The translations under genes and the position numbers were made by a program. Shown piece after piece: positions 397 to 19,410 of a DNA stretch of 25,862 bases. This stretch comes from a virus (Duplodnaviria; Heunggongvirae; Uroviricota; Caudoviricetes), in the IMG/VR virus record IMGVR_UViG_2908572912_000005, positions 1-25,862 of that record. One strand, 5' to 3'. The first letter of the stretch is position 1. Each line of letters starts with the position of its first letter. Under the pieces are notes generated by a model. It was not told the origin of the DNA. It was given only the letters and a program-made list of their open reading frames with translations, and made no database searches.

Positions 397-3009
397 TCAA
401 TGTTCGCTTCCTGTTAACTGCCGGACAAGTGCAACCAGTTCGCTTACCTGATTTTCCAGAGTGCTGATCCGGGTGTCTGCTGTTGCCAGATTTTCACGTA
501 GCGTTGTGTTTTCCTCTTCCAGCGCGGTAACGCGATCATCTGTTTCACGGGCGACCTGAACAAGTAAACCCGTCACGGCGGCGTAGTCAACATTAAGATA
601 GCGCGTTTCTTCGCGTAGCTCGTTGCCGTCAACGGTCGGGCCTTGCAACTCTTCACCGTAATGGATGAATGAACCAACGGCCTCCGGGATGGCCTCTTCA
701 ACTTCCTGGGCTATAACCCCGGCGCAATGTGCCCCATTCTCCTTGAGCGTGTACGTGTATCCATTAATTTTGCGGATTGCGTCAGTCGCGTTATCGATAA
801 TCTCGATATTTTCTTTCAGTCTGCGGTCTGATGACTGATTCAGTGTGGTGCAGTTAACACTTCCGTTTACAGTAAGGTTTTGCCCGTCTGTTGTTTTTTG
901 CGCATAAAACAGATACGCAGCAGACGTGCCAACCTCAAAAACGTTTTGTCGAGTACTGGAACCCCACACCCTGACAGAAAACGGTAGTTCTGCATTACCT
1001 GAGTTCTGTAAAACAAAACGATTACCAGTCCCTGATTGCTTTGTAAGGGTTAAATCAACGGTTGAGTTAACCTCATTCCTGTTGATAGTGAGCGCCTGCG
1101 CTGTAGCCCCGTTAACAGCACCTGTTTTGAGTTGAACCGCGCCGTCATTACCATTTAACAGTATCTCAGCTCCGCTAAAGAAATTTTTTAGCGACAGCAT
1201 CTTACTTACGCCGACTGATGAACCCAACGCCCACGCGAGAGAATTACCGGTGCTATCAAACCCACGTACAAAGCAATCCATTTTGCTATAGTCTGACGTG
1301 CTTCCAAGGACATCAATCCGCCCTCCGCCAGATTTTATCGGGTTAGATGTGGTTAATGACCTGACAGCAATATCGGTAGATGAATTGAGATCGTCTACTG
1401 TTAGTAATTTCTTCCATTCCTGCGTCGTTCCATTTTCAATTGTTCTTCCCCAAAAACCGGAATTGCGGCCTCCGAACTGCACAGCATAATTTTTACTAAA
1501 TTGAACATGAATGCCGCCAAGAACCATAGAGCCTGCCGGGCCGTTTGTACTGCCTGCAATTGGTCTAAATTTGTCGACGTTATCAGTATGCTGAGCGTTC
1601 CAGTCATGACCTGTTAATGTTGCGATTCCTGAGTTAGCTGTAATTAACCCAGACGCTTTAAGATTCTGCACATCAATTCTGTCGTTTGCGAAATTATATG
1701 CAATTGCGTTACTAACGCTTCCGGCATCATCATAATCACGTTTCTGAATAAACCAGTCGCCAGCATTAGCAATGAGAGTATAAGTAGGCGTGTTAGCCGG
1801 GCGATCTGTTTCATTAAATCTTATTGCTGGGTTAGCGCTCCTTATTTGTAAAGGTTTTTCAACCGTTGATTTCAGTATCGCACTATCTACAATTAAATTA
1901 CCTTCTGAGTTAAGGTTTAGATATTTTGAAGCACCAGTTGAACCATCGTATGTAAACCTTATTGTTAATTGACCTGGCTCATTTGATAAAGTTTCAACAT
2001 ACATATCAGCACCAAGACGCACAGTGCTGTCAGTTGCTAACAGTCTTGTATGGAGAATTCCACTAGATGTGTATGTATTGGTCGAATCACTATATCTATC
2101 AAGAAATAGACTGTTAAGTTGAGGGCTGTTGTTCCTACCTAAGCCAAGATTCGTTCTGGCACCATCAACAGTTGCCGCATTAGTGCCTCCTTGTCCAATA
2201 GGTAATGGAACCCATGACGATCCGTTATGGCAACCCCACGATCCAGATGTTGACACCTGAAGTCGTGGCGCTGATGGTGAGTAATTCGAATAAACGTAAG
2301 TAGTCGATTCGCCTTCTTCAATTCTTTCTGTTAATACTATTTTTTTCCATACACTCCAACCTTGTGTGCTGGTATATATCCTTCTATAAAGAATTGATGA
2401 ATTGTTATATACAAAATAGCTCTGGATACAACCATCACTACCATTAGCACCAGTTCTTTGCACTAACAATGCACCAGCAAGCTGTATCGGGTAATTTAGT
2501 TCTGGCTTTGCGTTGGCAGACATTGGTTGGTAATAAAAACCGGCTGTAGTACCTTTTATATCGTTTAAGTTCGTATTCGCATCAAGGCCAGTTTTTGCTT
2601 CAAACATGACTTCAAGTTTAGAGCGCGCTGTACTTGCATCATTCGCCCCTGTGCCACCTTGCGCAACTGCGAGCGGTTGCCATCTACCAGCTTTAGGGTT
2701 AAATGCGCCCCACTGACCGTCAGCATCAACCTGTAAGTAACAGCCGTCCGCCTGAACGTCAGTAGATAAAATGATGGTTCTTGTGTCGCTTGAACGCTGA
2801 AATCGGATAACCTCATCTTTTCTTGCGTGGCGTGTCCATTGCGGGCCTATTGTCGGATTCCAGCGATAAGTATAAAGCGAGCGCGTAGCCCATCCCTGAA
2901 ATACACCTGTATACGCTGGTGTTCCATCTACCTGACTAATAAACCCCGTAAGACTGCTTTCACCGGATGCAATCGATGGAAAGCCTTTTGCATTACTCAT
3001 AATGCGCAT
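397..3009 (-). CDS. Phage tail fibre protein, N-terminally truncated remnant, with C-terminal intramolecular chaperone (peptidase S74-like) domain
   Basis: 870-aa ORF. C-terminus carries the SDRRLKENIEII motif typical of auto-cleaving tail-fibre/endosialidase chaperone domains. The same frame stays open upstream to ~3330 and encodes Ala/Ser/Thr-rich repeats (SETNAK...) typical of side-tail-fibre N-regions, but has no start codon there; first ATG is at 3009. Confidence 0.8.
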   Translation of the reverse strand: MRIMSNAKGFPSIASGESSLTGFISQVDGTPAYTGVFQGWATRSLYTYRWNPTIGPQWTRHARKDEVIRFQRSSDTRTIILSTDVQADGCYLQVDADGQWGAFNPKAGRWQPLAVAQGGTGANDASTARSKLEVMFEAKTGLDANTNLNDIKGTTAGFYYQPMSANAKPELNYPIQLAGALLVQRTGANGSDGCIQSYFVYNNSSILYRRIYTSTQGWSVWKKIVLTERIEEGESTTYVYSNYSPSAPRLQVSTSGSWGCHNGSSWVPLPIGQGGTNAATVDGARTNLGLGRNNSPQLNSLFLDRYSDSTNTYTSSGILHTRLLATDSTVRLGADMYVETLSNEPGQLTIRFTYDGSTGASKYLNLNSEGNLIVDSAILKSTVEKPLQIRSANPAIRFNETDRPANTPTYTLIANAGDWFIQKRDYDDAGSVSNAIAYNFANDRIDVQNLKASGLITANSGIATLTGHDWNAQHTDNVDKFRPIAGSTNGPAGSMVLGGIHVQFSKNYAVQFGGRNSGFWGRTIENGTTQEWKKLLTVDDLNSSTDIAVRSLTTSNPIKSGGGRIDVLGSTSDYSKMDCFVRGFDSTGNSLAWALGSSVGVSKMLSLKNFFSGAEILLNGNDGAVQLKTGAVNGATAQALTINRNEVNSTVDLTLTKQSGTGNRFVLQNSGNAELPFSVRVWGSSTRQNVFEVGTSAAYLFYAQKTTDGQNLTVNGSVNCTTLNQSSDRRLKENIEIIDNATDAIRKINGYTYTLKENGAHCAGVIAQEVEEAIPEAVGSFIHYGEELQGPTVDGNELREETRYLNVDYAAVTGLLVQVARETDDRVTALEEENTTLRENLATADTRISTLENQVSELVALVRQLTGSEH

Positions 3010-3092
3010 AAATCCGATATACCCTGATGGGTTGCCGGAAATATCAGGACAATCACGCGGGGCTGAGCCAAGACCGATATTATCGCCAACAA

Positions 3093-10509: not shown

Positions 10510-12774
10510 TTATACGGAAACTGGCACACGAGCAGGCAATGGATAGTGAGCCCAGTTATTAGCATTTAAAGCTCTTACGCCATCAGCATAAACTTGTGTG
10601 TTTCCATCTAATGATTTTAAAGTTACTACAATAGTTACAGGTAAAGGCTCCATTAAGGCCGGTTCATTCGCTCTCAACGTTGTTTTAGCCTGAAGAGCCC
10701 AGTTACCCGAAGTAATTCCTTTATTAAATGCCTTGCGATGAATTTTTACTGGTGACCACTTTCCACCATGCTCAATTTGAGCTCTCTCATATCCAGATTG
10801 ACCGTTTTCTCCTTCCATAGGCACTTTTCCTTTTATAGTATTATTCTCAATTAAGCCAAAACTTAGCTCTACGTTCGCGCGAACATATTCACTGCCGGCA
10901 TTAGGGTTCAGTGGTGGTGCATATGCAGCAGTAATTACAATCTCACCTTTAAATTTTCCATTTTGAATAAGTGCCGATGGTATGGGATAGTTTTCCTTTC
11001 TCCACCTCATCCCAGGAACCAAGAATGTTTGGAAAATCAGAGTAAACCTATCATCACTATCATATAAGGTCTCAATAACTTCATTAGGAATTCCCGCTCC
11101 CAAATAGCGTCTTTCACTTGGCGAGTAATCAGGAGAAGATAATTGAGCGGAATGAATTAATAATGCTTTAATCAATGATGGTGAAACATTAAAGTCTGAA
11201 TTAGTGGCTATTCTCTGCCATGTATGCGCAGCTAAACTTGCCACAATTGGAGCAGCAAAACTAGTACCAAAATTAGAGCAAAGCCTATTATCTGGCCCTA
11301 CGACCTTTAAACTGCTTGCTCCTACATTCCAAGGTCTATGAACCCCACCGCCAGCATGGATTATATCTGGCTTTGGAGTAAATACAGGCCCAGGGCCACG
11401 ACGAGTATATGGTGTCGGTGTTCCAATTTCACTTAAAGCATCATTAGCTTCCATATGAGAAACTGAACCAACTGTTAGTGCTCGGACTGACTCTCCAGGA
11501 GAGGAAATTAAATCAGCACCTCCAAGCGGTTCAGGATTTGGCCATGTACGTATAGGTTCATCTACATAATTACCTGCAGCAACTACAAACAAAATACCAA
11601 ATTTATCGCTGAGCCGATCTAACTCCATCGCAAAATCACTAAACGTCTGCTCATTGCATGGTCCGCCTCCCAAAGACAAATTCCAGACTTTTATATCTGG
11701 TCTTTTATTTACAGCATCTGCTAGCCTCAGAATTAAATCTGATATATAAGATCCATTTTCATCTAAGGCACAAACATCATGGATTTTAGATTTTGTATCA
11801 GGAATCCATGGATGATTGTCATTTAAAAAATGAGCGCCTGATATCAATGAAGACACCATAGTCCCATGTTCATAACTCGTATCAGGAGGAATTACGTATG
11901 TTTCCCTACTCACTACCCAAGGAGTAATTGTTGCCGCGATGGGGCTTACCCCAGTGTCAAATACAGCAACAATGGGTAATTCTTCTGATGGTACGGGAAA
12001 GCTATTTGTTTCAATGCCAACAGAATCACTTACACTAACCGGGAATGCTGAATATTTTGGTTCTGGAATTAACGTTCTTATACCCGGGTAATCAATGAGA
12101 ATGTCTAATATATATCTATCATTTGGGGATAAATCCATTATCCTTAATAAGGGAAGACCACATTTTTGTCTAATCTCATCATATTTAACTCCGTGTTGTT
12201 CTAATATAGAAATAACGTTTTCATAGTTGTTGTAAGTTGCATCTTCACCTGTGTACTCAAATAGTCGTACAAGGATGTTTGATGATTCAAACAAACCATC
12301 AGTGCCTCCTGGAACCTTCCTATTCTCATCCCAAGGTTCAATGCGCTCAATCGCGCTTAGATTAGCCAAAATCGCTTTAATATTCCGATGTAAAATGACT
12401 GACTCTAATACGTCAAAACAGCCGGCATGAGCAGCAACCAACATTTCATCTATTTTGGCATGACCGGCATTTTGCAATCCAGCCTCTTGAGCAATTTTGT
12501 TCGGCCTATGCGTTTTGGCTATTCCCTGGTCTCTTAATTTGAAAACCAAAGTACCCAAGCTTCCAGGGTACTCTGAAAGTTTGGATTCTAAATAATGTTT
12601 ACTGGTTGTTAAATTTCTTACTAGCCCTTGTCTATATTCGGCTGTTACATCAACCAATACCTTTGCCCCACCGCCAGCGTTTACTATTGCACCCAAGTCA
12701 CTACTGGAAAAAGGGATTCTTAACATTGGGTTTGTAACTTTTGCGTTACTAAACTGTGTACCCCTTCTGCTCAT
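10510..12774 (-). CDS. Subtilisin-like serine peptidase (S8 family) with large N- and C-terminal extensions
   Basis: 754 aa; catalytic triad motifs in canonical D-H-S order: VAVFDTGV (Asp), YEHGTMVSS (His), GTSFAAPIVA (Ser), plus AAGN oxyanion-region motif. No obvious signal peptide. Start overlaps the upstream ATPase gene by 26 nt. Confidence 0.9.
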   Translation of the reverse strand: MSRRGTQFSNAKVTNPMLRIPFSSSDLGAIVNAGGGAKVLVDVTAEYRQGLVRNLTTSKHYLESKLSEYPGSLGTLVFKLRDQGIAKTHRPNKIAQEAGLQNAGHAKIDEMLVAAHAGCFDVLESVILHRNIKAILANLSAIERIEPWDENRKVPGGTDGLFESSNILVRLFEYTGEDATYNNYENVISILEQHGVKYDEIRQKCGLPLLRIMDLSPNDRYILDILIDYPGIRTLIPEPKYSAFPVSVSDSVGIETNSFPVPSEELPIVAVFDTGVSPIAATITPWVVSRETYVIPPDTSYEHGTMVSSLISGAHFLNDNHPWIPDTKSKIHDVCALDENGSYISDLILRLADAVNKRPDIKVWNLSLGGGPCNEQTFSDFAMELDRLSDKFGILFVVAAGNYVDEPIRTWPNPEPLGGADLISSPGESVRALTVGSVSHMEANDALSEIGTPTPYTRRGPGPVFTPKPDIIHAGGGVHRPWNVGASSLKVVGPDNRLCSNFGTSFAAPIVASLAAHTWQRIATNSDFNVSPSLIKALLIHSAQLSSPDYSPSERRYLGAGIPNEVIETLYDSDDRFTLIFQTFLVPGMRWRKENYPIPSALIQNGKFKGEIVITAAYAPPLNPNAGSEYVRANVELSFGLIENNTIKGKVPMEGENGQSGYERAQIEHGGKWSPVKIHRKAFNKGITSGNWALQAKTTLRANEPALMEPLPVTIVVTLKSLDGNTQVYADGVRALNANNWAHYPLPARVPVSV

Positions 12775-13903
12775 ATGCTCCTGACTCCTTCAGAATGTTT
12801 GAAATTACTCTTGATGTAAGTTTGTACAAATTAGCAAGAACTCTGATAGAAAATAATTTTTTATCTTTAGAACGTAACCAACGAATTTCATCTTCGTAAG
12901 TGCTTAAATTTACACCTTCCATAAGCGATTGAGCAAGATACAAACGCCTATACAATTTATGGTGATTTATCACACTTGCACCTTCAATAACTGCATCCCT
13001 ACGTGCATCCAAGCTCACCTGTTCAATTATTGCTCCGGATAATCCTTCCGATTTTCTTGATAAATCACTTAAATCTAGATCGCTACATATCATATTCTTT
13101 AAACGATTTTTCCAAATTAACTCTCTCTGATGTATGTCAGGCAGAGGCATTGGAATTCTGAAGCTAAATCGCCTCCAGATTGCAGGATCCAGAAGTTGCT
13201 CATGGTTAGTTGAGGCAATAATTACCGTATCCTCTGATGCCGCATCCATATTCTGCAATAGTGAAATGACAACTCGCTGAAGCTCACCTATATCTCTCTC
13301 ATTACCTCTTGCTCCAGCTAAAGCATCAAATTCGTCTAAAAAAAGCACTGATGGCCTCTGCATTACATAATCGAAAACCTGTCTAAGATTTTTGCTGGTT
13401 TGTCCCAATAAACTACTAATCAAAGTATCGCAACGCACTGTAAGAAGTGGAAAATCTAAGCGGGTAGCGATGTACTTAGATAACATAGTCTTACCTGTTC
13501 CTGGCTTTCCATACACGAGCATACGACTCGGCAATGCTGCATCAGCTTTAACAAACTCATCATAACGTTGAACATTAGTGATAAACTCTTCAACACGGGT
13601 ACTGATTGCTGCAGGCAGAAAAATCTCTGAACTGTCTAATTTAGGATAACTGACATCAACAGTGTTGAGTCGACTATCAATATCTACCGGTAATGAGCCC
13701 AGAGATATCCCACCTCCAGCCCTTTGAGCTCCTGCCAACGCCTGGGGAGCTCTAAGCAACCTTTCTCTTATCATTCTGGCTTGCTTGACCTCCCCTTTTT
13801 GTTCGAGCTTATCTGCCAGCAACCCAGCATAATTACTAGCCATCGAAGCATTTGCCTTTGTTGCACCTTCAATGATTTTTAACACTTCTGATAAATAATC
13901 CAT
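12749..13903 (-). CDS. AAA+ family ATPase
   Basis: 384 aa; Walker A GKPGTGKT, Walker B VLFLDEFDAL, sensor-1 region IIASTNHEQLLDPAIWRRF; ~130-aa N-terminal extension; GGGAG ribosome-binding site. Confidence 0.9.
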   Translation of the reverse strand: MDYLSEVLKIIEGATKANASMASNYAGLLADKLEQKGEVKQARMIRERLLRAPQALAGAQRAGGGISLGSLPVDIDSRLNTVDVSYPKLDSSEIFLPAAISTRVEEFITNVQRYDEFVKADAALPSRMLVYGKPGTGKTMLSKYIATRLDFPLLTVRCDTLISSLLGQTSKNLRQVFDYVMQRPSVLFLDEFDALAGARGNERDIGELQRVVISLLQNMDAASEDTVIIASTNHEQLLDPAIWRRFSFRIPMPLPDIHQRELIWKNRLKNMICSDLDLSDLSRKSEGLSGAIIEQVSLDARRDAVIEGASVINHHKLYRRLYLAQSLMEGVNLSTYEDEIRWLRSKDKKLFSIRVLANLYKLTSRVISNILKESGAYEQKGYTV

Positions 13904-16946: not shown

Positions 16947-17369
16947 TCAATGCACTACGACAGAATCGCTAGGAGAACCGCCGCCGCTGAAATGTGCTTT
17001 ACGGTAAACGGCCTGGACTGCATCATCATGCGCATCAATTGCCGTACTCAGTGCATCCTGTGCCGCCAGTAATGCACGGCGTTCCAGGGTATCGAAGATG
17101 CAGAGTCGGTGACGCAGCTCGCGAGGAAGAATTGCCAGAACCGCAGGGATCAGTTTCTGAATTTTTTCCCTTTGCGCATTCGTTTCACCTTTCAACCAAC
17201 GATGATAGATATTCTGCTGATTGTTCCAGTCCTTGCCTGGTACCAGGGGCAATTCGCCGCCCCCCTGGCGCAGATATTCTTCAGTAATTGCGTTAGCGAC
17301 CCACGCCTGCCCTTTTTCGGCTGCCAGGGCTAACAACACTGATTCGATGTGCTCATGCTTGATTTTCAT
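16947..17369 (-). CDS. ydaT: YdaT-like protein
   Basis: 140 aa starting MKIKHEHIESVLLALAAEKGQAWVANAITEEYLRQGGG..., matching my recollection of Rac YdaT; start overlaps the upstream stop in an ATGA junction. Confidence 0.75.
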   Translation of the reverse strand: MKIKHEHIESVLLALAAEKGQAWVANAITEEYLRQGGGELPLVPGKDWNNQQNIYHRWLKGETNAQREKIQKLIPAVLAILPRELRHRLCIFDTLERRALLAAQDALSTAIDAHDDAVQAVYRKAHFSGGGSPSDSVVVH

Positions 17370-17620
17370 GAATCAACTCCCATCAGCTTTTTCGTAGTAG
17401 TTTTATTTCTGCCAATAGTTAAAATTGCATCGGCAGAAAATAATCCGTTTGATGCATGAGCGATTTTTTCAGCGTAATTTGTTTCGCCGGTATATTCTGT
17501 GCGAGGCAATTTTCCGTTATCCATCCATTTGTAGATTGCTCTTTGGCTGACACCACAAACGTCGGCCACAACAGAAACGCGAACAGTTTTGATTACATCT
17601 TCAAGTGTTTTCTGGTTCAT
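17366..17620 (-). CDS. Cro/YdaS-like helix-turn-helix regulator
   Basis: 84 aa from the ATG at 17620 with GAGGA Shine-Dalgarno; HTH-like segment VADVCGVSQRAIYKWM; divergent from the CI-like repressor gene. Confidence 0.7.
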   Translation of the reverse strand: MNQKTLEDVIKTVRVSVVADVCGVSQRAIYKWMDNGKLPRTEYTGETNYAEKIAHASNGLFSADAILTIGRNKTTTKKLMGVDS

Positions 17621-17640
17621 ATCATCCTCACAATGTGAAC

Positions 17641-17699
17641 TTTGAGTACATGCTATAACAGAACTGACAGTACATTCAAGAGCGAATATCATTGAACTT
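17641..17699. promoter_or_regulatory. Immunity-switch intergenic region (OR-like) with two AGTACAT motifs and candidate divergent promoters
   Basis: AGTACAT at 17645-17651 and 17669-17675. Leftward candidate promoter: -35 TTGAAT (17675-17670), -10 TATAGC (17652-17647). Rightward candidate: -35 CTGACA (17665-17670), 17-nt spacer, -10 TATCAT (17688-17693), which would place the transcript start at or near the repressor ATG at 17700 (leaderless). Confidence 0.4.
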
Positions 17700-18119
17700 A
17701 TGGTTCATGAAGATAAAGCGCGTAAAGAGTTCGCCAGTAGGCTTGCGCTAGCCTGTGAAAACGCTGGTTATGAACAACATGGAAGGCAGGCAGAAATTGC
17801 CCGTCGAATGAAATTAACACCAAAAGCGGTTAGCAAATGGTTTAATGGTGAAACAATTCCTCGCCGAGAGAAATTAAGGGAATTAGCAACACTCATTGGA
17901 ACAACACCAACCTATCTTTTGGGAGAGGATACAGAAGAAAGTGGACAGATACGTTTCTATCAGGAGTTAAATCCAAGACAAAAAATCATCATTGACCTTC
18001 TGGACGAGCTCCCTGACAGTGAGACAGATGAACTTTTAAAAACTCTTGAGGAGAAAAAACAGAAGTACAATGCAATTTACGAAGAGTTAGCACGAAAGAA
18101 AAAACAAAAAGCCTCTTAA
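17700..18119 (+). CDS. CI-type (XRE-family HTH) prophage repressor, RacR-like by position
   Basis: 139 aa; HTH segment RQAEIARRMKLTPKAVSKWFNGE; divergent from the cro-like gene; no Shine-Dalgarno before the ATG. Confidence 0.7.
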   Translation: MVHEDKARKEFASRLALACENAGYEQHGRQAEIARRMKLTPKAVSKWFNGETIPRREKLRELATLIGTTPTYLLGEDTEESGQIRFYQELNPRQKIIIDLLDELPDSETDELLKTLEEKKQKYNAIYEELARKKKQKAS

Positions 18120-18191
18120 ATCAGCATAAATCCGGTAGCGTCCCCCTCCGGGTTTGTGCTTCACTTTATCCCGTCTCATTTTTTTATACAT

Positions 18192-18241
18192 AAAATGTAC
18201 TTAAAGTACTTTACAATGATGAACACAAAGTACATTATATA
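18192..18241 (+). promoter_or_regulatory. OL/pL-like operator-promoter region: palindromes sharing the (A)GTACA(T) core, overlapping a candidate promoter
   Basis: ATGTACTT (18195-18202), perfect 10-bp palindrome AAAGTACTTT (18203-18212) and AAAGTACATT (18227-18236); candidate -35 TTACAA (18211-18216) and -10 near 18234-18241, oriented toward the plus-strand early-left genes. Confidence 0.4.
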
Positions 18242-18406
18242 CCTACCAACCCACCCCGCCCCACAGAACGCAGGGCAATACTTCGAGTTACCAGGCAGTG
18301 GTAAGGGGTTAAGTAGCCAGCCCGAGGCGTATGAACATGACGGCGGGATTCAAATTTTGCAGTGCAGCAGTTAGTTCCGCCACCCGGCGTTAAGGGGAGA
18401 GATAAG

Positions 18407-18541
18407 ATGGTGCATTACGAAGTAGTTCAGTATTTGATGGATTGTTGCGGTATCACTTACAACCAGGCTGTGCAGGCTTTACGCAGCAACGACTGGGATC
18501 TCTGGCAGGCAGAAGTCGCTATACGTAGCAACAAGATGTGA
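18407..18541 (+). CDS. ydaG: Small protein YdaG-like (44 aa)
   Basis: ATG at 18407 with AAGGGGAGAG upstream; length and position (between repressor and ydaF/sieB) match Rac ydaG. Confidence 0.5.
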   Translation: MVHYEVVQYLMDCCGITYNQAVQALRSNDWDLWQAEVAIRSNKM

Positions 18542-18551
18542 GATTCGCAAA

Positions 18552-18707
18552 ATGCAAAAAATCGACCTCGGCAACAACGAATCCCTGGTGTGCGGCGTGT
18601 TCCCCAACCAGGATGGAACGTTCACTGCCATGACGTATACCAAAAGCAAAACATTTAAAACCGAAACTGGTGCGCGCCGATGGTTGGAGAAGCACACAGT
18701 AAGCTAA
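18552..18707 (+). CDS. ydaF: Small protein YdaF-like (51 aa)
   Basis: ATG at 18552; length and position adjacent to sieB match Rac ydaF; 3' end overlaps the sieB 3' end convergently. Confidence 0.5.
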   Translation: MQKIDLGNNESLVCGVFPNQDGTFTAMTYTKSKTFKTETGARRWLEKHTVS

Positions 18708-19192
18708 CGATTAAAACGTCTACTCCTGCTGTTCCAGAATAACTTCATAAAATGGGAGTATTTTTCGGTGACGAGATAATAAGAACAGTTTGCGCTATCA
18801 CTCTGATGTTGAATGATGCCCTTCCGTTCTAATTTTTTCATAACCGGGTTACGGCAAGGAGAAGTGATAATAAGATTTCCTGTTTTAAGGAAATCTTTAA
18901 ATACAGCGATTTCTTTCTCAGATAAACGAAGCAATACTCGTTGCTCTGGTAGTAATGAATAATGCTTTTGAATATGTGCTCGCAATCTTGAGAAGGAAAT
19001 GGCGACCACGAAAGAAAAGGCAAAAACGATAATCTGAAAGAGCCAAGGTATTTCAGTATAAGCATTGAATGCGACAGTAAACTCTTTCGGTATCAGCCAG
19101 AGAGTGAGACCAAAAATGATAATCGTATACATAAGTCTTTCGAGTGGCTCGTTAGCAAAAAGTTTCAACAATGGAGTAAATACATCCAACAT
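18704..19192 (-). CDS. sieB: Superinfection exclusion protein SieB
   Basis: 162 aa from the ATG at 19192 (MLDVFTPLLKLFANEPLERLMYTIIIFGL...), membrane segments; matches SieB as I recall it. The longer ORF track form starts upstream at 19315. Confidence 0.85.
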   Translation of the reverse strand: MLDVFTPLLKLFANEPLERLMYTIIIFGLTLWLIPKEFTVAFNAYTEIPWLFQIIVFAFSFVVAISFSRLRAHIQKHYSLLPEQRVLLRLSEKEIAVFKDFLKTGNLIITSPCRNPVMKKLERKGIIQHQSDSANCSYYLVTEKYSHFMKLFWNSRSRRFNR

Positions 19193-19410
19193 ATCAATAA
19201 CTCTCAACTGTAAGGGTATTGAAATGTTAACACAAGCTCTCGCTGTAGGGGTATAGCCGAGACCACCGAAGCCCGGAGGTGGTGAAATAAAACCGGGCAC
19301 AACACGAAGGCGCATTTCCGATATCCATAAAGAGTCGGTCTTGTCTGTTAAATTTAAATGGTGGGAGTGCGCCTCCGGTTGTAAATAACGACATTGCTGT
19401 GTGTAGTCCT

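Follow-up and report, generated by a model that had tools for sequence, protein, structure and literature searches.

The DNA analysed here (positions 1 to 25,862 of the IMG/VR virus record IMGVR_UViG_2908572912_000005; the whole 25,862-bp stretch is referred to as the window) is a Rac-type prophage of Escherichia coli. Its immunity region is arranged around a gene for a short repressor, flanked on the left by a cro-like gene, a gene for a YdaT-family (CII-equivalent) protein, and the replication genes, and on the right by a 44-amino-acid ydaG-like gene, ydaF (DUF1391), sieB (on the opposite strand), kilR, ydaE, racC, and recE. An earlier note on this DNA had drawn attention to the heptamer AGTACAT in the two intergenic regions on either side of the repressor gene and had taken it as the operator core of a CI-type repressor. 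These two regions contain five 15-bp dyads, which are very likely the operators of a lambdoid immunity switch of the HK022/933W type, predicted to be run by a 139-amino-acid repressor that lacks the S24 peptidase domain. The features of the locus are as follows (OR and OL, right and left operators; PR and PL, right and left early promoters; PRM, promoter for repressor maintenance).

17376–18243: immunity cassette, consisting of the cro-like gene, OR, the repressor gene, a terminator-like hairpin, and OL/PL; a mosaic block in place of the racR-ydaS cassette of K-12 Rac
17366–17620, minus strand: gene for the cro-like regulator, 84 amino acids, with the Shine-Dalgarno sequence GAGGA; phrog_35
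17700–18119, plus strand: repressor gene, 139 amino acids, XRE/HTH_3, with HTH_3 as the sole Pfam match
17636–17650: predicted OR1, TGAACTTTGAGTACA, adjoining the cro-like gene and lying over the predicted PR start; holds the first heptamer; counterpart of HK022 oR 3057–3071
17660–17674: predicted OR2, AGAACTGACAGTACA, between the PR -10 and -35; holds the second heptamer; counterpart of HK022 oR 3033–3047
17693–17707: predicted OR3, TGAACTTATGGTTCA, across the repressor start codon; counterpart of HK022 oR 3000–3014
18196–18210: predicted OL2, TGTACTTAAAGTACT, abutting the PL -35; counterpart of HK022 oL 2225–2239
18220–18234: predicted OL1, TGAACACAAAGTACA, between the PL -35 and -10 and overlapping the -10; counterpart of HK022 oL 2201–2215
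17652–17679, minus strand: predicted PR of the cro-like operon, -35 TTGAAT (17679–17674), -10 TATAGC (17657–17652) preceded by TGT
17664–17692, plus strand: candidate PRM of the repressor gene, -35 CTGACA, 17-nt spacer, -10 TATCAT (17687–17692); 10 of 12 consensus positions in the promoter scan
18210–18238, plus strand: predicted PL of the ydaG-ydaF ... kilR-racC-recE operon, -35 TTTACA (18210–18215), 17-nt spacer, -10 CATTAT (18233–18238)
18123–18160, plus strand: candidate terminator hairpin behind the repressor stop codon, free energy -19.4 kcal/mol, z = -4.6, followed by UUCACUUUAU

As the earlier note had reported, four copies of AGTACAT or its complement flank the repressor gene, at 17645–17651 (plus strand), 17669–17675 (plus), 18195–18201 (minus), and 18229–18235 (plus). 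The whole window contains seven copies against 2.5 expected, a number reached in one of 100 shuffles, and four of the seven fall within 601 bp (P ~5e-7, a Poisson estimate from the window-wide rate). The clustering is real and not a product of chance. A repeat finder placed the heptamers in longer families, which read TGAACTTTGAGTACATG, AGAACTGACAGTACATT, and TGAACTTATGGTTCATG ahead of the repressor gene and ATGTACTTAAAGTACTTTA and ATGAACACAAAGTACATTA behind it. The underlying unit is a rotationally symmetric dyad of 15 bp, with the consensus TG(A/T)ACT-N3-AGT(A/T)CA, of which there are five in the window; the heptamer covers one half-site from position 6' to position 1', together with a single adjacent base. 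All ten half-sites have G at position 2, A at position 4, and C at position 5, giving the invariant core G-(A/T)-A-C, and GTAC is read by half of the half-sites, the other half reading GAAC/GTTC. Thus, the sites noticed through the heptamer are genuine, but the unit is the dyad rather than the heptamer. The left half-sites (TGAAC/AGAAC) and the whole of OR3, in which both halves are GAAC/GTTC, had been overlooked because they lack GTAC, so that the two OR sites recognized earlier were correct and a third was missed. Similarly, of the two palindromes proposed downstream of the repressor gene, that at 18195–18212 holds a true dyad (18196–18210), whereas that at 18227–18236 represents only the right half-site of the dyad at 18220–18234. 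In the 25,862 bp there are exactly five matches to the core pattern G[AT]AC-N5-GT[AT]C, where 0.94 would be expected (P(≥5) = 0.0035, with the clustering not yet counted), and all five fall within the two intergenic regions. Measured from start to start, the sites are 24 and 33 bp apart in OR (OR1–OR2–OR3) and 24 bp apart in OL. A third OL site was sought and rejected, there being no further dyad above background near 18120–18260.

The closest counterparts of this arrangement were found in phage HK022 (X16093.1 and AF069308.1) and in a 933W-type record (GQ499361). The annotation of X16093.1 comprises three oR sites of 15 bp, two oL sites, and the hexamers of pR and pL. With a linear coordinate mapping for OR and another for OL, each of these features falls on a dyad or hexamer of the window without an indel. 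GQ499361 annotates OR1–3 and OL1–2 in the same arrangement as in the window. As a blind test, position weight matrices were derived separately from the sites annotated in HK022, from those of the 933W type, and from the two sets combined; with all three, the five window dyads were the top five sites of the 25.9-kb window, and OR3 had the top score with the HK022 matrix. On random first-order Markov sequences, the HK022 matrix found a mean of 0.77 sites of ≥12 bits and a maximum of four in 300 trials. One OL site in the 933W-only matrix was 2 bp out of register, which weakened the matrix and left the ranking unchanged. In 933W, the operator is a 15-bp dyad symmetric about its central base pair, in which positions 2–5 (G, A/T, A, C) are critical, residues S41, K42, and K46 of the CI recognition helix have been implicated in recognition, and there is no OL3 (PMC3317979). 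The window shares with the HK022/933W operator set the half-site pattern in 10 of 10 half-sites, three OR sites with OR3 over the ATG and the pR hexamers interleaved with OR1 and OR2, two sites placed on either side of the pL -35 and extending into the pL -10, and a repressor with a homologous helix-turn-helix (HTH) domain that keeps K42 and K46. The proposal that these sites form the OR/OL layout of a CI-like repressor is therefore borne out by positional homology to the HK022 promoters and operators, by the footprinted 933W sites, and by the conservation described below, although it remains a prediction at the level of sequence.

The likenesses and differences are instructive in detail. HK022 has the same 15-bp dyad, an identical OR3 15-mer, the same spacing in OR (24 and 33 bp) and in OL (24 bp), identical positions of the pR and pL hexamers, and an OR3 that lies across the cI ATG. 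However, its CI protein has 235 amino acids with an S24 autopeptidase domain, whereas the window protein has 139 amino acids with an unrelated helical C-terminal module, and the flanking genes are nun and cII in HK022 and ydaG-ydaF and ydaT in the window. HK022 also has an additional high-scoring dyad, GGTACTAAAAGTACA, just downstream of cro (positions 1164–1178 of the HK022 locus, L003), which we take to be possibly the far-right operator of the older HK022 literature; it has no counterpart in the window, where a YdaT-box occupies this place instead. The 933W type likewise has the 15-bp dyad with G-(A/T)-A-C at positions 2–5, three OR and two OL sites, OR3 over the cI ATG, and K42 and K46, but it prefers C at position 1 (CGAAC/CGTAC), its OL spacing is 22 bp rather than 24 bp, and its CI, unlike the window repressor, carries an S24 domain and is inducible through RecA. 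In phage lambda, all three OR sites are located upstream of the PRM start, with centers near -19, -42, and -66. The OR sites in the window are centered at approximately +1, -33, and -57 relative to the PRM start, so that, unlike in lambda, OR3 lies on the start point itself. The lambda system resembles the window in that the repressor gene lacks a Shine-Dalgarno sequence, has a -10 placed for a start at the A of the ATG, and is transcribed towards OL/PL.

The sites overlap two predicted divergent promoters and a predicted early promoter downstream of the repressor gene, as had been proposed, and the positions of the hexamers agree with those of the relatives. The PR -35 and -10 coincide in position with the pR hexamers annotated in X16093.1, and the TTG of the -35 is conserved; an alternative -10, TAGCAT, is located at 17655–17650. 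The PL hexamers found in the scan coincide with the pL -35 and -10 annotated in X16093.1 and are also conserved. The candidate PRM -35, CTGACA, is the spacer of OR2, and the pattern CTGAxA is retained there in all relatives. Every relative likewise has a PRM -10 of the form TAxxxT situated 8 nt ahead of the ATG (HK022, TATAGT; Salmonella, TATAAT; 933W type, TAGTAT), and the PRM hexamers show no polymorphism within the species. The predicted PRM start is at 17699/17700, on the A of the repressor ATG or on the preceding nucleotide. No Shine-Dalgarno sequence was found in 17680–17699, and the 16 nt directly ahead of this ATG have no room for one, because they are taken up by the OR3 half-site. 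The suggestion that the repressor gene lacks a Shine-Dalgarno sequence and that a candidate promoter would start transcription at its ATG thus survived inspection and holds by homology. Since the PRM hexamers are conserved and non-polymorphic and there is no Shine-Dalgarno sequence, the prediction of a leaderless repressor mRNA of the lambda PRM type is well founded. The central base of OR3 is the A of the ATG (17700), and the right half-site of OR3 doubles as codons 1–3 of the repressor (M-V-H/Q), of which M1 and V2 are shared without exception by the proteins of the window, HK022, and 933W. The hairpin behind the repressor gene may terminate PRM transcripts ahead of PL; it was seen only with a relaxed fold, and a strict terminator scan made no call.

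The conservation of the locus was examined in short-form relatives (an E. coli-like protein of 89% identity from metagenome contigs, Shigella, and Salmonella with 62–65% identity) and in S24-bearing long forms (Raoultella and metagenomes). A scan of genome contigs with the single repressor protein yielded one Shigella locus, and the diverged loci came from a separate search of the encoding contigs. Three dyads, at -64, -40, and -7 relative to the conserved ATG, occur in HK022 and in all the relative loci fetched. The downstream pair, 24 bp apart, is present in all short-form loci and in HK022, and it was not found in the sequence examined for the other long-form loci. In an ungapped stack of relatives, 26 of the 30 half-site core columns were invariant, compared with 16 of 58 columns elsewhere (p = 1e-7). 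Among the variants of the same allele from E. coli, Shigella, and metagenomes, variation was absent from the 36 core positions and present at 50 of the 164 remaining intergenic positions (p = 1e-5), and the differences that fell inside the sites were confined to the spacers. Furthermore, the dyad motif accompanies the CI-type N-terminal domain in loci with differing neighboring genes. Of 5426 complete E. coli genomes, 1046 (~19%) carry the 868-bp cassette (17376–18243), which is also found in records deposited as complete phage genomes; the source of the "phage" record with an identical repressor is a genome survey of clinical isolates. At present, the repressor of the cassette is annotated merely as a "helix-turn-helix domain-containing protein".

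Some of the relatives showed features of their own. In Salmonella, the short repressor gene is separated from the OL pair by two genes resembling the HigB toxin and the HTH antitoxin HigA (2053–2720 in locus L005; 2088–2755 in L006 and L007), which lie in the slot occupied by rexAB in lambda and by stk in 933W. The OL pair lies approximately 900 bp from the repressor stop codon, beyond this insert, with the 24-bp spacing retained. The called starts of the 151-amino-acid Salmonella repressor (L006 and L007, 1501–1956) and of the 240-amino-acid Raoultella repressor (L010, 1501–2223) precede the conserved ATG located in OR3, and these calls therefore run through OR1 and OR2. They are probably mis-annotated; the conserved N-terminus, MVHEDK/MVHEE, begins at position 1546 of L006 and at position 1513 of L010.

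The repressor consists of an HTH domain (amino acids 1–75), a disordered linker, and a helical C-terminal module (amino acids ~88–139; 17964–18116). It is 46% identical to HK022 CI over amino acids 4–102 (BLASTP, E 9e-32), or ~58% over amino acids 4–75 when counted on the alignment, and 51% identical to the 933W-type CI over amino acids 1–73 (BLASTP, E 2e-25). Its recognition helix, TPKAVSKW, keeps K42 and K46 of 933W CI. The alignment with the HK022 and 933W CI proteins stops at around amino acids 75–100, and no match to the S24 peptidase domain (PF00717) was found in the repressor, which places it outside the self-cleaving repressors of the LexA/lambda CI type. On this domain content, RecA-stimulated self-cleavage is excluded, because the S24 domain is lacking. 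A search of the window for LexA boxes gave no matches, and no recognizable antirepressor emerged from PHROG scans of its other large open reading frames (ORFs). An alignment-based AlphaFold2 model (mean predicted local distance difference test score, pLDDT, 80.5) was adequate and shows five helices in the HTH domain, disorder in the linker at 75–90, and further helices at 92–103 and 106–138; the single-sequence model (pLDDT 53) was not usable. Resemblances to SinR/SinI or SPC32H Rep were rejected as evidence, with root-mean-square deviations of 7–9 Å and PDB matches driven by the HTH domain. The Salmonella short forms retain the C-terminal part, residues ~88–139 (...PRQKIIIDLLDELPDSETDELLKTLEEKKQKYNAIYEEL...), in conserved form, and the module, with the pattern LSPRQxILLELFxELPDSE...LLKTLEEKKxxYDxLxEEL, is found at the C-terminus of at least 37 clusters of 120–185-amino-acid proteins with differing HTH N-terminal domains. 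It corresponds to no Pfam family, and K-12 RacR aligns weakly to it. Its recurrence on many HTH proteins, together with its conservation in Salmonella, indicates a portable module and not a frameshift remnant, and it looks like an oligomerization or regulatory module. Dimerization of the repressor through these C-terminal helices is plausible from the model. The Cro-like protein shares 59% identity with HK022 Cro and resembles the repressor in its HTH and recognition helix.

From this map, the switch would work as follows. Repressor dimers would read each half-site through the recognition helix. Occupation of OR1 and OR2 would block PR and keep the cro-like gene, ydaT, and the replication genes off, and occupation of OL2 and OL1 would block PL and silence ydaG-ydaF and, further on, kilR, racC, and recE. 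In 933W, occupancy of OR3 represses PRM (PMC5977221, PMC4848623); the window OR3, centered on +1 of PRM, would bring about negative autoregulation in the same way. PR and PRM overlap, with starts approximately 55 bp apart, and the shut-off of PR would probably free PRM. If PRM is stimulated at all, relief from PR competition would be a likelier route than contact activation. The Cro-like protein would be expected to compete for the sites of the repressor.

Several observations weigh against assigning the dyads to an operating HK022/933W-type switch. The HK022 record itself terms its operator sites "potential". PR matches the consensus poorly (8 of 12) and was not listed by the promoter scan, and three of its six -10 positions vary among the variants. 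The candidate PRM -35 lies inside OR2, which is centered near -33 and does not fit lambda-style activation from -42; with this geometry, contact activation of the lambda kind is impossible here. The repressor has P41 where 933W CI has S41, and it lacks the S24 domain that mediates dimerization and cooperativity in HK022 CI, while dimerization by the C-terminal module rests on a monomer model and weak fold resemblances. The missing S24 domain, and the frequent defectiveness of Rac-type elements, could mean that the dyads are relics in a decaying cryptic prophage, in which a truncated-looking protein, deprived of the whole S24 half of HK022 CI, no longer binds or regulates. We consider this improbable, given that the C-terminal part is not frameshift debris but is conserved between E. 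coli and Salmonella and recurs on other HTH proteins, that the core positions are free of substitutions (0 of 36) while 30% of the other intergenic positions vary, and that the cassette is carried by 19% of complete E. coli genomes and by records deposited as complete phage genomes.

Another reading is that the sites are real operators used mainly by the Cro-like protein or by another regulator such as YdaT, with the 139-amino-acid protein acting elsewhere. The Cro-like protein has a similar recognition helix, and YdaT binds within the racR-ydaS intergenic region of K-12 (PMC11879457). There is only a slim chance that this applies here: the dyad motif goes with the CI-type N-terminal domain where the neighboring genes differ, 933W CI, which is 51% identical in the HTH domain, footprints similar sites (PMC3317979), and the YdaT motif is different and is located elsewhere in the window. 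Nor are the heptamers at all likely to be a by-product of AT-rich promoter DNA or of a GTAC restriction or methylation target instead of part of an operator. Both intergenic regions are indeed AT-rich, and GTAC is a 4-bp palindrome recognized by known restriction enzymes; however, half of the half-sites read GAAC/GTTC and not GTAC, the 24- and 33-bp spacings are fixed across genera, composition-preserving shuffles fail to reproduce the pattern, and the conservation data contradict such an origin, which leaves it a negligible probability. An HK022/933W-type operator set therefore remains the best account of the five dyads.

A comparison with the Rac prophage of K-12 indicated a different immunity allele at the same position. 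K-12 Rac aligns to the window at 16949–17375 (92.8%) and 18244–19360 (99.8%), with no similarity between these segments. The two elements share the prophage backbone, the position of the cassette between ydaT and ydaG-ydaF, a 3 + 2 arrangement of 15-bp dyads at equivalent places, and a small repressor without S24. However, RacR and the window repressor have only a 33-amino-acid HTH stretch in common, and the dyads of the K-12 cassette follow the motif TTAGGC-N3-GCCTAA, which does not occur in the window; conversely, the window motif does not occur in the K-12 Rac locus. The window cassette thus does not belong to the RacR immunity type. In K-12 MG1655, the dyads are located at -94, -68, and -43 upstream of racR (1370–1435 in locus L013) and at +97 and +122 downstream (2037–2076), and racR has a leader with a Shine-Dalgarno sequence, whereas the window repressor has an operator on its ATG. 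The cassettes differ in the DNA-binding domain and the dyad motif together, and therefore show the behavior expected of operators. The essentiality of RacR and the toxicity of YdaS/YdaT were shown for the K-12 allele (PMC5700373, PMC5700377). The lethality of repressor loss that the earlier note had invoked for this locus is thus known for a non-homologous allele with a different operator motif and is not simply transferable.

The left mosaic boundary of the cassette is marked by one further element, which is found at the ydaT start in both K-12 Rac and the window.

17359–17376: YdaT-box, TTGATTTTCATGAATCAA, an exact TTGATT-N6-AATCAA, over the cro stop codon and the ydaT start (ATG)

This box has been footprinted in K-12 Rac and CP-933P (PMC11879457, PMC9986795). 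In K-12 Rac, the footprinted box activates a reverse PRE-like promoter (PRE, promoter for repressor establishment) inside ydaS, which drives racR, and YdaT binds additionally within the racR-ydaS intergenic region (PMC11879457). The window copy is a predicted site for the CII-equivalent protein in a PRE-type establishment control. Any reverse promoter in the window must differ from that of K-12, because the upstream gene is an unrelated HK022-like cro.

Some other features of the window were observed in passing. The leader of approximately 160 nt between PL and the ydaG-like gene (18244–18406) is 99.8% identical to K-12 Rac and matches thousands of E. coli genomes at 86–94% identity, with no annotated feature beneath. 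The fold of the PL leader (18245–18410) was not better than those of shuffles (z = -0.6), so that a structured RNA or a put-like element is unsupported, and an Rfam search of 17300–19400 gave no matches. The longest sieB ORF encodes 203 amino acids (18704–19315, minus strand), the Pfam SieB match begins at residue 62 of it, and the RefSeq product in ECONIH4 and K-12 has 162 amino acids (489 bp). An anti-phage defense pair, IetA (384 amino acids, E 9e-143) and IetS (754 amino acids, E 1e-301), is carried as cargo at 10510–13903 (minus strand), between ren-like and Q-like genes.

An operator set of the HK022/933W kind is already known; the less ordinary trait of this locus is the S24-less repressor with its portable C-terminal module. 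A literature search found no paper linking Rac-type prophages to HK022-type immunity or describing the short repressor. The analysis supplies a testable operator map, with five 15-bp sites and three promoters, for a cassette present in ~19% of complete E. coli genomes, and it indicates that no fewer than two immunity alleles, which differ in operator specificity, exist among Rac-type prophages. The results obtained with K-12 RacR, such as its essentiality and cross-talk, are therefore not to be carried over to strains with the window allele. Two predictions follow for these strains, namely cross-immunity with HK022-type phages and an SOS-independent route of induction. Apart from the operator map, the alleles, and these predictions, the locus represents textbook lambdoid mosaicism. 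More tentatively, we suggest as a possibility that about a fifth of E. coli genomes may carry a repressor of HK022 specificity that is not removable by RecA-stimulated cleavage, and hence may be constitutively immune to superinfection by HK022-type phages, with cross-regulation by the CI and Cro proteins of such phages also possible; the LPDSE...LEEKK module could then mark a widespread class of small prophage repressors under the control of an antirepressor or a non-SOS signal.

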